Assembly: GCF_964204645.1 (NCBI RefSeq)
Contig: NC_134030.1
Location: 16,554,110-16,618,109 of the forward strand
Length of the DNA stretch: 64,000 nucleotides
Source: Tubulanus polymorphus
Taxonomy: Eukaryota; Animalia; Nemertea
Reading direction: 5' to 3'
Shown: piece after piece, positions 6,912 through 35,902 of the stretch
How the letters are laid out: each line of letters starts with the position of its first letter
Position numbering within the stretch: position 1 is the first letter of the stretch
Notes under the pieces: model-generated
What the model was told of the DNA's origin: nothing
Database searches by the model: none
The model's input: the letters and a program-made list of their open reading frames with translations, nothing else
Program-made: the position numbers and the translations under genes

Positions 6912-6996
6912 AGTAATAGGGAAAGTGGGCTTTCAGATCAGAGGTCGAAGGTCGACCACTCATCACCACAAGTAATTTTTTTCCCTTATAAATGGG
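6912..6996 (+). repeat. Left terminal inverted repeat of Maverick A
   Basis: Reverse complement of 23201-23285. It ends in TATAAATGGG, which includes the ATG at 6992. Confidence 0.95.
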
Positions 6997-7318
6997 AGAT
7001 AGAAAAGCATTCTCAGCAACAATAAATAACAGATTAAAACCAGCAAAAAAACAATTTGAAATAAAAAAGTTAATTGATGTTACAAAAGAAATTGAACATA
7101 AAATATTGAAATTAGAAAAGATAAAAACTAAATATGGAGAGAAAGTATCAGCGAATTTAAGTTACCGTAATGTTAGTACATCGCGAGAATTTAAAGTATT
7201 TTTACCCGATAAATGGGTTTCATTGAGTACAGAGGAATTAAAAGATTTAGAAGGATTTAAAATAATCTATCATGGAAAAAATGGAGACGGTCATCATGAT
7301 TTAGAAATTGTTGATTAA
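6992..7318 (+). CDS. Hypothetical Maverick protein (108 aa)
   Basis: Intact ORF that starts inside the TIR at TATAAATG. Confidence 0.6.
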   Translation: MGDRKAFSATINNRLKPAKKQFEIKKLIDVTKEIEHKILKLEKIKTKYGEKVSANLSYRNVSTSREFKVFLPDKWVSLSTEELKDLEGFKIIYHGKNGDGHHDLEIVD

Positions 7319-7624
7319 ATAAAAAATAAAAATAATGAATATCTAAAAATGACCTTAGTCGTTTTACGAACAACTACAATCATACAGCCAAACATCTGTT
7401 ACATGTTATTATAAGAGAGTGCTTCATTTGAATAATGATCGATCAAACAGGTGTTGCAATTCAACGTTGTTGTTATATTGGATAGCTAGCAGTTATATAA
7501 TAAGCGCGCAGTACATACAACACACACAGGATACATTCTCTCTCTCGTGATTAAAAGGAATATTTCAGTGTTTTTAAGGTAAGTTTTAGCAAAATTGCCC
7601 TATCCTCGACCTACAGAGTTTTCA

Positions 7625-7805
7625 GGGGATAAGCATCCCATTATTGAAAGGCGCCACGGGACGCTTATCCCCAGTCATTTCTACTTACACCCCCGCGACC
7701 CACGTTACCCGGGATCTCCTTCAATGATTGGCAGAAATCACATTATATTAAAGGCGCCTAATGTAATTTCTACCAATCTCGAAATTCAAACCGAAGGAGA
7801 AACCC
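7625..7805. ncRNA. Candidate structured non-coding RNA: two hairpins sharing a loop
   Basis: Stems 7625-7641/7656-7672 and 7726-7745/7759-7778. Loops tattgaaaggcgcc and tattaaaggcgcc. Outer stem tctccttc/gaaggaga. Confidence 0.5.
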
Positions 7806-8349
7806 GGAGAGTGGACGAAGGTGCATTTTCAAAATGCCTCTGCTGGCCAGAGCTACTCCAGCGTTGGAATAAATTGCCTTATATACTTAGCTAAAACACC
7901 TAAGTAAATGTTGTTGGTGTTTACTAAAGAAATATGTGAAATTTGAAATTATAAATTATTCCGAATGAAAAGAATATAGGAATGAAAACTGATAAATGAA
8001 TTATGGATTTTTAACTTAATTATGATATAATTTCTAATCAAATTAGTAATCAATTACCATGTTAATTGATTAACAAATTCAAATTCAAATATTCATTTTA
8101 GCATCACACCCAGTGCTGCCATCTTTCAATTTAAGAAAAAACTAATAATAAGAAACGACTGTTATACAATATTCAAGTAAAAACTTCAAATTAAAAAACA
8201 GAATAAATTAATAAAAATAATGAATATCTAGAATCCGAAATGACTTATCTGGACAATTTAATTGCTCCGCATAGATGGTGCCATAAACGGCACCCACACA
8301 GTGATAGACAAAAGTAGTGAGATATTCAATTATTTTTTTTGCTTTTTTT

Positions 8350-8709
8350 CTAAATATTAATCCATTTTTTTATTATCAATTTTGGAATTTCAGAAGTATT
8401 TTCATTTTTGATAGCAGTTGTTTCAGAATTATTAATATCATGAATTTTATTTGATTTCTTATACCAATTACACCCAATCAAAATGAATACAATTACAAAT
8501 CCAACTGTAAAATATAGACATTTATCAAATATTCTATTATTAGAAGGAGTAGAAATAACAATATTTTCACTATTTTTATTAACATTTTTATTACTTATTT
8601 TTTCTTTTACAGCTTTTTTATATTCTTGTGATTTAATTCCTAATTGCCGAGACCATTCAATTTGTTTCTGTGATCTCGGTTTTTTCTTCACTTCTTCCAC
8701 CTTGTTCAT
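8350..8709 (-). CDS. Small basic protein with one transmembrane helix
   Basis: Hydrophobic CLYFTVGFVIVFILIG segment, TAAATG start, homologue at 31422-31819. Confidence 0.7.
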   Translation of the reverse strand: MNKVEEVKKKPRSQKQIEWSRQLGIKSQEYKKAVKEKISNKNVNKNSENIVISTPSNNRIFDKCLYFTVGFVIVFILIGCNWYKKSNKIHDINNSETTAIKNENTSEIPKLIIKKWINI

Positions 8710-9248
8710 TTATTATAGAAATATTTTTACTTTCAATATTTGAAAATGTTATAACCCCAGTTGATAATAATGTCATAAATCCGCCTAATTGAAATAAGAA
8801 ATATCCAATCCATTTATTTAATTTAGTCATAACTAAATAATCATTTTTCAAATCGGAATATAATCTATTGTCATCTTCAATTGGTAGTATATAATTACAT
8901 AATTTACTATAACCTTTTACTACATTTTCTGATATCGGGTCATTAATTCTAGCTGTTCTCGCGGTTTCATAAATCTCAAATAATCTAATAATTTCATCTG
9001 ATTTCATTGTATCTAATTCATTATAAGTTAAATTTTTACCGATAAAATTTTTACATTTTCCAGATGCTATTAATATTTCTAATTGATGTTTACAATAAAG
9101 ATAATATTCATAATTATTATTTGTTGTCACATTTTTTAAAGCACCATCATCTGGAGTTAATTTTGTTTCTGTTATTCCTAAATCATCTAAAGTTTTTTTC
9201 AATTGGAACATCACCATTTTTAGATTTTATTTTCTTTTCACCTCCCAT
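8657..9248 (-). pseudogene. Conserved hypothetical Maverick protein (frameshift near the 5' end)
   Basis: Homologous to 30827-31429 (YEYYLYCKH.LE.LIA.GK). The true start is probably TATATAAATG at 9248. Confidence 0.7.
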
Positions 9249-9437
9249 TTATATAACAAAAAAATTAGTTGTGATGTTGCAACTAGAATTTAACTAGAAT
9301 GTAACTAAAAATATACTAGATTAACAAGCTAGTTAAAATATTGTTGAATTTTATTTGATTTTTGTTTCAAATACCAATAACTAGAATTCAACTAGAATGT
9401 AACTAAATATGTAATAGATGAACAAACCTGTTGAATT

Positions 9438-33606: not shown

Positions 33607-33629
33607 TTATATAATTAAAAAATTAATAA

Positions 33630-34048
33630 TTTATTAATTCTTTTAATAATTTATCTTGTTCTTCAACTGTTATATGGCCATTTAAACTTATTATATAATC
33701 TAGTGTATTTTTTGATTTATTAATTTCTTTTATATTAGTTTTAATTTTTTCTTAATTACTTTTTATATTTAATTTTGAACTTATACCAGTTAAAACACTT
33801 GAACTTAATCCTAATACACCAATTGATATAGCTTAAGGTGTTAATGGACTGAATATTGCTAGAGATGTTATTACAGAACTAATTGTAACCGAACCACTTA
33901 TAATCAAATAATATATAATTTTCCTTTTTAAATATTTTTTCTTTTTTATCTTTAAGTCACTTTCAAATTCTAATATTTGTTTTTCTAAAAATATTTTTAA
34001 TTTAGTTTTATTTATATCATGAGTAATAATATCAATATTATCATCCAT
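33630..34048 (-). pseudogene. Copy of the membrane protein 13442-13858
   Basis: Near-identical DNA with a premature stop. Confidence 0.7.
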
Positions 34049-34067
34049 TTATTTAGCAAAAAAATTA

Positions 34068-34490
34068 CTAATTAGTAAACTTATAAGCAACAAATATAAC
34101 AATAACAGTTCCACCTAAAATCCATATTATTTCATATTTCTGTTGTTCTTTACTTGGGGTATAATAATCTGATAATTTAGGTTTGTATAGATGTAATTTT
34201 TCTTTATTGGTTACCGCGTTATATAAACTCATTGCATCATCGACTGATTGAAAATCTCTATGTGAAATCTTCTGATCATATAATTCCTTGTTAATATAAT
34301 CCATATAGTTTTGCCTCTTTTCTCTGTATTCTTCTGCTGCTTTATTGTATTTTTCTAATGCTAAGTTATGTCTTCTTTGTTCTCCTAATGAACTATTTTT
34401 ATCAATATGCTTGAATAAATAACCACCACCAGTAAATGCTAAAGCGTTAACAATTGCCGATCCTATAATAGTTGTAATTGCAGAAGCCAT
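34068..34490 (-). CDS. Small virion/membrane protein (140 aa)
   Basis: Intact. Hydrophobic N-terminus, coiled coil, C-terminal TM. Confidence 0.7.
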   Translation of the reverse strand: MASAITTIIGSAIVNALAFTGGGYLFKHIDKNSSLGEQRRHNLALEKYNKAAEEYREKRQNYMDYINKELYDQKISHRDFQSVDDAMSLYNAVTNKEKLHLYKPKLSDYYTPSKEQQKYEIIWILGGTVIVIFVAYKFTN

Positions 34491-35109
34491 TTATTTAGTA
34501 AAATAATTTCGCATTTATATGGGAGGAATATATTTTTGTTTTTCTAAATAATCAATAGTTAAATTAGATAGAGTAACTGCTAATGTTAATTATAAGATAT
34601 CATTTATATCAAATCTATCAACATTAACACTTTCCATTTTGAATACTTTTTTTAATACCATTGAATAACCAACAGTTCCAACTGATAGTAATGCTCCATT
34701 ATATAATCCAGTTATTATCCACTTATTATCACTCATTTATTTATCAAAAAATTACTATCATCAAAATATTTAGTGAACTTATTTATGATTAAATCAACAT
34801 TTATTTCATTACTAGTTTCATTTGTATATATTTCAATTATTATATTTTTAATATCATTGATGATAAAATCTTCATCTTATTCATAAAATCTTAAAGATTC
34901 TCTAATTAAATTAGTAATCTTTTCTACATTTAAAGTTTCTTTATCTATTGTTGTTTCATACTCAAATGTTGTTTCATTAGAAAATTCAATATTTTTAATA
35001 TGTATAATTACATCATTTATGTTAAATTTCATTTCTTTCTCACGTTCTCAAGTCAAACCCAAAACATATACTCGGTCTAACAGTTATATTCATTTATATA
35101 GTGAAAAAA

Positions 35110-35862
35110 TTACTCTTTACATCTTATAACTAATTCATAAATTACAGGAAAGTTATTCAAATCAATTAAATATCCATTATGATTTCTTATTTCTAATTTA
35201 AGATTATTAAATTGAGGAATGCATGGTTTGAAATCACATTCTGTTAAATTATAATTTATTTGAGTTCCAAATTGTTTAACATTTTTTAATGGTAAAATAT
35301 TTAATATACTAGAATTACAAATATCTTTAGTTGCTTCAAATGTTTTTGTAGGATTAATTAAATTGCAATAAATATAAAAGTGTGTAAAAGTCATTACATT
35401 TCTATAAGTTTCGATACTTGAATAATGTCTATCCGGAAGAATTCCAAACAGTTTAGCTAAAGGTTTTCTTACTAGAAATCTATGTTGTTCATTAGTTAAC
35501 TTTATTCTTATTTTATTCGAACTATCACTTTTAATAAATTTAATTTCAAATCGAGCAGCTGAGCCCATTTTTAAACGAGCTCTTTTATTAATTTCTTGCG
35601 CTAATGTTTCTAAATTATATAATCCTGGTTTTAGATAAAGATGAAACCATTTATTCAAATTTCTAACATAAATTTTAAAAGCTAAATGATCAAGACTTTT
35701 ATTCGATATATTATGAAAAGAATTACATAAACTTATATTAACTAATTTTAAATCAACACAATTCTTAAATTCTCTATCTAATTGTACTAGTAAATTATGA
35801 GATTTATAATTTGTAAGTTTTCTTGAATCAACAAATATTCTGTATTCTTTTAATTCTACCAT
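35110..35862 (-). CDS. Probable minor capsid (penton) protein, 250 aa
   Basis: Intact ORF. PGLYNL, FYIYCNLI and IRNHNGYLIDLN motifs; size and position in the structural module fit. Confidence 0.7.
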   Translation of the reverse strand: MVELKEYRIFVDSRKLTNYKSHNLLVQLDREFKNCVDLKLVNISLCNSFHNISNKSLDHLAFKIYVRNLNKWFHLYLKPGLYNLETLAQEINKRARLKMGSAARFEIKFIKSDSSNKIRIKLTNEQHRFLVRKPLAKLFGILPDRHYSSIETYRNVMTFTHFYIYCNLINPTKTFEATKDICNSSILNILPLKNVKQFGTQINYNLTECDFKPCIPQFNNLKLEIRNHNGYLIDLNNFPVIYELVIRCKE

Positions 35863-35902
35863 TTATTTTACATATTTTATTCGAAATCTATTTCATGGTG
35901 CC

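Follow-up and report, generated by a model that had tools for sequence, protein, structure and literature searches.

An apparent poxvirus-late-like initiator at the gene starts of a clade of integrase-bearing Mavericks

Introduction

Mavirus carries a pPolB (protein-primed DNA polymerase B) as well as an RVE integrase, and it integrates. Together with Sputnik and PgVV-14T it is described as a small capsid-encoding element that lacks an RNA polymerase and keeps its genes under one promoter type (PMC6428243; 10.1101/2022.07.28.501842), and for Sputnik and mavirus the late promoters are reported to be common to the virophage and its giant virus (PMC6428243). In these accounts a virophage is marked by a single promoter class for every gene of an element that has no polymerase (PMC6428243; 10.1101/2022.07.28.501842; PMC6401483). 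A comparable arrangement is described here for element 1, a Maverick/Polinton at positions 6912..23285 of a 64,000-nucleotide stretch of the Tubulanus polymorphus genome (NC_134030.1, positions 16,554,110 to 16,618,109 of the forward strand), the whole of which is referred to as the window. Like the virophages, it is a small capsid-encoding element with no RNA polymerase found, and almost all of its surviving genes begin at the same TAAATG signal. The virophages differ in their mimivirid motifs (TCTA, AAAATTGA), protist hosts and known helper, as reported, whereas the Maverick has a pox-like motif, probably an animal host, no protease that could be found and a helper that is only presumed.

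Polinton-like viruses (PLVs) associated with entomopoxviruses resemble the present case in being Polinton-like and in having been proposed as poxvirus hyperparasites in animals (Barth et al., PMC11296320). They differ in encoding a cysteine protease, and their two pPolB members are reported without detectable integrase (PMC11296320). The main text of that paper contains no occurrence of promoter, TAAAT, motif, upstream or transcription. The Polintoviricetes and adintoviruses, as described, share with element 1 a pPolB, an RVE integrase, an A32 ATPase, a double jelly-roll capsid, terminal inverted repeats and a 6-bp target duplication (PMC8502044; 10.64898/2026.06.19.733378), and they differ from it in that no adenain-type protease was found in the window Maverick; the word promoter is absent from the main texts of both sources. 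No earlier report of a TAAATG-type motif in Mavericks was found in the literature, of which subscription papers, figures and most supplements were outside view. The yeast cytoplasmic elements pGKL1/2 are linear pPolB elements. They are reported to initiate at a pox-like TAAAN, where slippage produces 5' poly(A) leaders, and to supply an RNA polymerase and a capping enzyme of their own (PMC6211774); neither enzyme was found in the window Maverick. The clade-wide pox-late-like initiator predicted here for an integrase-bearing Maverick appears real, and it belongs to a kind already known, the transcriptional parasitism of large DNA viruses.

Start signal

An earlier note on this DNA, made from the letters alone, listed 21 gene starts in the two Mavericks of the window at which TAAATG overlaps the start codon, and all 21 positions have TAA immediately 5' of an ATG. 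The integrase start at 31826, given as an exception, reads TAAGATG as stated. A further exception absent from the list is the start at 15666, which reads TAAAT-A-ATG, and the TAAATG at 15731 lies on the plus strand. One listed site, 30302, exists as a motif but is no true gene start, its open reading frame (ORF) aligning with residues 111-161 of an HNH protein. Nor do the sites count as 21 independent cases: 6992 and 23205 fall in the two terminal-repeat copies, 34048, 34490, 34736 and 35093 lie within a 90% identical duplicate of 13858, 14340, 14586 and 14943, and 30827 and 31422 are orthologues of 9248 and 8709. The claim that the signal stands before almost every Maverick gene nevertheless held in element 1, where TAAATG is present at 12 of the 13 surviving starts against 28 of 564 other ATGs (Fisher p 3e-14). 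Counted across all of element 1, the bare hexamer shows no enrichment (40 observed, 29-40 expected under Markov orders 1-4). The extended form T5-N0-9-ATAAATG is enriched, with 8 observed, 0.7-0.9 expected and 0/300 simulations reaching that count at each order. The form AATTTTTT-N2-5-TAWATAAATG, described as frequent, is present at 9 of the 21 sites, and the other 12 depart from it. With the window sites partly duplicated and 30302 a false start, relatives of the element give the stronger test.

The capsid alignment was used as a query and returned 25 metagenome loci. Near duplicates (L002 and L014) were removed, as were L021-L025, which are decayed and distant and have no intact ORFs; this leaves 18, with 15 in the clade and three outside it (L015, L016 and L018); starts were taken from complete ORFs of at least 70 aa. 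Related loci were not found in the viral contigs searched with capsid, intein, ATPase and polymerase queries, nor in the prokaryote genomes searched. In the 15 clade loci, TAAATG is present at 55/64 starts and at 89/2117 other ATGs. All 21 gene families, replication and capsid genes alike, have TAAATG in at least one member, and three loci of only 56-64% AT carry it at 9 of 11 starts. Among the nine exceptions, four keep TAAAT a few bases from the ATG, and mis-calling or breakage of the start seems to account for some of the rest. The more distant L015, L016 and L018, which have the same genes, show TAAATG at 0/10 starts and lack the upstream T at -12 as well, so that promoter type appears to vary within the wider lineage. 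In a capsid tree that left out L016 and L018, L015 falls outside the clade formed by the window and all motif-bearing loci in the tree, with 100/98 support and long branches. The comparison of start motifs with other ATGs and with AT content suggested by the earlier note, run in element 1 and in the relatives, leaves AT richness failing as an explanation.

The anatomy of the signal was scored on 55 start TAAATG and 96 non-start TAAATG in the relatives. A T at -12 is found in 52/55 starts and 29/96 non-starts, an A at -18 in 44/55 and 26/96, and a purine at +4 in 54/55 and 55/96; no conservation is seen beyond -18 in the clade starts. There is no TATA-like excess at -80..-20 (10/54, 13 expected), and the early motif of nucleocytoplasmic large DNA viruses (NCLDVs) occurs at only 2/54 starts. 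Five divergent gene pairs have TAAATG on both strands with ATGs 19-30 bp apart. A T occupies position -3 in 88% of starts, which is a poor Kozak context, and the suggestion that a Kozak-like context might account for the motif fails on this count. The T at -3 and the closeness of the divergent genes speak against both a Kozak context and ordinary Pol II promoters. Taken with the T-12, A-18 and purine preferences, the lack of anything conserved past -18 or of a TATA excess, and the rarity of overlap with an upstream stop, these features suggest a transcription initiator placed over the start codon.

In published descriptions the vaccinia late promoter combines TAAAT(G) with a conserved T that lies upstream, within a run of T's (PMC11980589; PMC5294985), and its consensus is written T-N9-TAAATG (PMC11423596 Table 1). 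Compared with this published consensus, rather than with poxvirus DNA, the Maverick signal is alike in placing TAAATG over the start codon, followed by a purine and preceded at a fixed distance by a conserved T within a T-run. It is unlike in that the T peak lies one base closer (T-N8), with an extra conserved A at -18, and in that it stands on almost all genes, including polymerase and integrase, of an element in which no RNA polymerase was found. The published 'group I' late pattern matches 17/55 starts and 1/96 non-starts. As judged from its letters, the architecture is that of a vaccinia late promoter with the spacing one base off. The T-tract had been read in the earlier note as the poxvirus early terminator TTTTTNT, a reading that does not stand: the tract sits at the upstream-T position of a late promoter, and the motif also lies inside 8/31 intact ORFs of three relatives. 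TTTTTNT is present at 9/21 window sites, always in promoter position and also where no gene lies upstream, and the T-tract thus reads as a promoter element, not an early terminator.

Transcription

The Maverick clade is probably transcribed, in the manner of virophages, by the late machinery of a co-infecting cytoplasmic large DNA virus, since one promoter class stands on nearly all genes and no RNA polymerase was found in the element. The claim that the element encodes no such enzyme agrees with Pfam and NCBIfam searches, and a complete element leaves no space for the large subunits; the same searches give no match to RNA polymerase, TBP or TFIIB core domains in 41 window frames and 32 proteins of relatives. 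Poly(A) leaders of the vaccinia type are reported to come from slippage (PMC6211774). Under helper-virus transcription the signal, with A at -18, T at -12, TAAATG and a purine in fixed spacing, would act as a late-type viral promoter, read by the RNA polymerase of the co-infecting virus. By analogy with vaccinia, initiation would take place inside the AAA with hardly any templated leader, and slippage would add a 5' poly(A) leader that places an A at -3. Integrated copies would stay silent until the helper provides late factors, and the promoters in the two terminal repeats would both fire toward the interior, that of one repeat driving the DNA polymerase gene. Pox-related and iridovirus-like viruses both fit as the helper family; that the helper is a poxvirus proper can be put forward only tentatively.

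Viral contigs scanned for the motif yielded 87 loci, 81 of them long enough to score. Among the scored loci, no Maverick has the motif at most genes and only a few giant-virus loci are enriched; no record recognisable as a poxvirus was seen among the contigs scanned. The iridovirus-like bin G004 (L102, L124, L128), with TAAATG at 11/26 starts, offers a candidate late initiator for the iridovirus-like group. Its capsid is closest to PDB 6ojn/8hif and 7yjl, presumably an iridovirus and a marseillevirus. Five other large-virus records have TAAATG at 12-22% of starts, with 9 to 44 starts each. Across the six large-virus records, which were picked first by motif (G007 by a polymerase query) and read in part, the range is 12-48% of starts and none shows a fixed T-12. 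Some non-pox giant viruses thus favour TAAATG as well. A supplement caption marks a start-codon motif in an iridovirus-like genome (PMC6401483), a point that may matter for the identity of the helper.

Several points weigh against helper-virus transcription or against a poxvirus in that role. No helper virus was identified in the motif scan, and with T-12 at only 4 of its 11 TAAATG starts the signal of G004 is no match either. The T peak favours T-N8 (52/55 starts, 29/96 non-starts) over the vaccinia-like T-N9 (42/55, 34/96). The grouping of loci into 15 inside and three outside was drawn post hoc, and all 18 give 55/74. The polymerase intein, called NCLDV-style in the earlier note, is real, but its closest kin are two other Maverick-type polymerases, and the nearest outside the Mavericks lies in a polymerase of Pol-delta type rather than in that of a poxvirus. 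Insect cell lines carrying a recombinant expression system are reported to yield adintovirus particles (PMC8502044), and expression of polintovirus genes is reported in coral (PMC11131425); an NCLDV helper may therefore be dispensable for other Mavericks. With the zinc-finger gene and several small genes lacking an assignment, the element may also encode a factor of its own. In the relatives, perfect or near-perfect hairpins of 30 bp stand between convergent genes at L001:3700-3849 (z -9.5) and L008:3128-3277 (z -8.1), and are absent in L005. They are possible 3'-end signals, and as such would recall the mimivirus hairpin rule more than poxvirus termination.

The alternative that survives best, unlikely as it is, has host Pol II read the promoter without a helper, aided by a factor that the element itself encodes. 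The factor would be a highly diverged TBP, TFIIB or VLTF3-like protein, possibly the product of the zinc-finger gene at 15731. This gene gives a weak TFIIB zinc-ribbon match (E 0.045, below the cut-off), and TBP and VLTF3-like genes are listed in related viruses by Starrett et al. (PMC8502044). Against such a factor stand the failure of the TBP and TFIIB core-domain searches, the all-helical, low-confidence model of the sole TBP-sized protein without assignment, the lack of a known fold match for the 442-aa protein and the failure of the VLTF3 profile on the zinc-finger gene (-30 bits). The absence of conservation past -18 is contrary to a TATA-type Pol II promoter, and a TATA-type box touching the ATG would place the Pol II start within the ORF.

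It is quite improbable that the signal is the host-type core promoter of a short-leader eukaryote, such as some protists, retained from a former or principal host whose Pol II would read it. AT-rich initiators near the ATG occur in some protists, and the metagenome relatives carry no host assignment, both of which count in its favour. The element is, however, multi-copy in the window's own species, with a read depth of 200-1700 on element 2 against ~13 on the flank, and related capsids occur in a bivalve genome, the source named for a 40% capsid relative. Flanking ATGs show no TAA excess (43/1554, in flanks that are repeats and not host genes), and in its invariant T-3 and +4 purine the signal keeps to the pox pattern.

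A post-transcriptional role, either stop-start coupling on a polycistronic RNA or the AATAAA poly(A) signal of the upstream gene, has very little probability. AATAAA does lie at -5..+1 in 23/55 starts, and the TAA is, as the earlier note said, the stop of the upstream gene at two window sites (10045 and 14586), but the latter holds in only 1 of 36 tandem cases in the relatives. AATAAA is no commoner in tandem (15/34) than in divergent (6/16) arrangement, all 16 starts in divergent pairs, which have no same-strand upstream neighbour, have T-12, and both terminal-repeat genes carry the signal. Chance, in the form of AT richness combined with picking the first ATG after a stop, counts as refuted, for although the bare hexamer count in element 1 is near Markov expectation, TAA adjoins 89/1430 first ATGs of non-gene ORFs against 55/64 gene starts, the equally AT-rich L015, L016 and L018 lack it and GC-richer loci retain it.

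Genome organization

Element 1 is a full-length decayed Maverick/Polinton, bounded by inverted ends, target duplication and read breaks. A perfect 6-bp target duplication flanks it at 6906-6911 and 23286-23291, and in read mapping same-species reads end abruptly before 6912 with mixed flanks. Its terminal inverted repeats of ~90 bp lie at 6912..6999 (plus strand, 92% identity over 93 nt to the right end), holding the promoter and start of the 6992 gene, and at 23198..23285 (minus strand), holding those of the DNA polymerase gene (23205). Elements 1 and 2 are both eroded by frameshifts and deletions, and many diverged copies are present in reads of the window's own species. Read joints mark two stretches as later insertions: 7321..8201, which is not in other copies (joint 7320 to 8202), and the 1187 bp at 21539..22725 inside the polymerase gene (joint 21538 to 22726, in 234 reads). 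The start at 23205 is therefore that of the DNA polymerase gene. In element 1, unmapped sequence is confined to both insertions, the zinc-finger gene, the N-terminal part of the polymerase and three stretches of <300 nt.

The Maverick/Polinton hallmarks detected are a pPolB, an RVE integrase, an A32-like ATPase, a double jelly-roll capsid, the terminal inverted repeats and the target duplication, and the small genes without assigned function match those of the intact metagenome relative L003 one to one. On the plus strand, a 108-aa gene without assigned function (6992..7318, TAAATG start) is 69% identical to L003:125-469. The genes that follow lie on the minus strand. A ~120-aa gene with a hydrophobic segment (8350..8709, TAAATG start) is 55% identical to L003:9951-10343, and a frameshifted ~200-aa gene (8657..9248, TAAATG start) corresponds to a 206-aa protein whose model is all helical at low confidence. 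The A32-type packaging ATPase (9437..10045, PF04665, E 1.4e-7) is broken, and the TAA of its TAAATG start is the integrase stop. The integrase itself (10046..11100, TAAATG start), broken and bearing a chromodomain, has a weak PF00665 match and a PF00385 match, and from residue 41 onward is 54-80% identical to intact relatives.

The frameshifted major capsid protein gene (11148..12363, TAAATG start) is 75-78% identical to L003 and L001. It scores 0.97-0.98 in the Atlas against Capsid_N and double jelly-roll clusters, and 13/38 capsid relatives give weak PF16903 matches; a PDB sequence search found no match, and a profile comparison of the capsid alignment with an iridovirus-like capsid was non-significant. 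A capsid of the same clade (P0008 and its cluster) is filed under several Bartonella assemblies on contigs of <2 kb, probably as carry-over from an animal sample.

At 12417..13449 lie, by comparison with relatives, remnants of two core genes with deleted starts, a 485-aa coiled-coil family and a 442-aa family. The latter (L003:2996-4324; window 13150-13449 and 33061-33606) has 1372 relatives and a confident predicted fold (pLDDT 88), for which nothing matched in three structure libraries; an Atlas search with a 126-aa protein returned nothing usable. A SLATT-like small membrane gene (13442..13858, TAAATG start) is 76% identical to L003:2541-2975, whose own SLATT matches are weak and below the cut-off. 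Three small genes, identified from sequence and relatives, occupy 13884..14943, with TAAATG starts at 14340, 14586 and 14943. The ~250-aa gene at 14960..15666, with its variant start, is 41% identical to L003:565-1329; family and structure searches gave zero matches, and it is named a putative minor capsid (penton) protein because of its size and place only.

Divergent from this gene, the multi-zinc-finger gene (15731..17060, plus strand, PF06220, TAAATG start) has several breaks, the first after 3 codons, and its N-terminus matches L003:11054-11482. A by-eye likeness of its C-terminus to VLTF3 was set aside after a five-sequence VLTF3 profile scored no better on this decayed target than on shuffles. 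The broken pPolB gene with N-terminal zinc fingers (17057..23205, minus strand, PF03175, TAAATG start) is colinear with the polymerase P0174 from residue 141, and the joint across the 1187-bp insertion connects its N-terminus. It contains a LAGLIDADG intein (17500..18550, ends approximate, minus strand, PF14528) that is 62% identical to that of P0174. The same intein is found at the same catalytic-motif site in P0174, P0175 and P0176, that is, in two quite different protein-primed polymerases and a Pol-delta-like one, which suggests homing between elements that share a compartment. L113, a 25% relative of the intein-bearing polymerase P0176, has TAAATG at 3/25 starts. No Pfam match to an adenain-type (adenovirus-type cysteine) protease was found in element 1 or L003, with little unmapped room and part of element 1 deleted, and an Rfam scan of the window gave 0 matches. 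In L003, a close relative, the same promoter precedes a deoxynucleoside kinase gene (L003:10340-10981, PF01712), a cargo that would be of use if DNA is replicated in the cytoplasm.

Element 2 (27640..35880) is a partial Maverick with a different gene order. Its left end is a true terminus, before which 1804 reads have loose, mixed ends, and its right side is interrupted by a host repeat. The left terminus is a 400-bp palindrome (27640..28042) whose beginning resembles that of element 1's terminal repeat; it has a central hairpin (z -6.6) and has a read depth of ~1200-1700, above the rest of element 2; it may also exist separately as a hairpin-type satellite. A remnant of an HNH-like endonuclease gene with a broken start codon (28275..28901, plus strand) matches L001:5568-6083, itself a weak PF01844 match, and read joints identify 30302-30517 as a duplicated fragment of it. 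On the plus strand, domain and relatives comparison places two genes with TAAATG starts at 30827 and 31422, and the integrase, at 30827..32934; on the minus strand, 32977..35862 holds six genes, identified from sequence and relatives, with TAAATG starts at 33606, 34048, 34490, 34736, 35093 and 35862.

Between the two elements the structural block is 90% identical (13427-15658 and 33624-35806), and the integrase block, which is also inverted, 71-75% (10058-11021 and 31936-32892). Blocks of such differing identity read as module exchange between families. The flanks contain a LINE reverse transcriptase, pieces of LTR retroelements and a DDE transposase (23965-24750, 46860-47786, 47950-48660, 59975-63559). 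Together with the bivalve source of the 40% capsid relative, these remnants suggest an invertebrate animal as host. A UCH-like protease domain lies at 25647-26615, and tandem arrays with units of 24, 146 and ~90 bp occupy 1915-2680, 36002-37245 and 56758-58227.

Implications

A near-universal signal of fixed geometry predicts 5' ends inside TAAAT with non-templated A's and expression only beside a large DNA virus, and the promoter would provide a sequence tag for finding the missing helper. More speculatively, the whole clade of animal-integrated Mavericks might consist of endogenous virophages of undiscovered pox or pox-related invertebrate viruses, silent until the late machinery of a helper arrives and possibly an inherited antiviral defence like mavirus in Cafeteria. 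If transcription by a helper virus is true, the virophage lifestyle, known in protists and suggested for the PLVs of moths, would extend to integrase-bearing Mavericks, and these elements, probably borne by animals, would be parasites of viruses.

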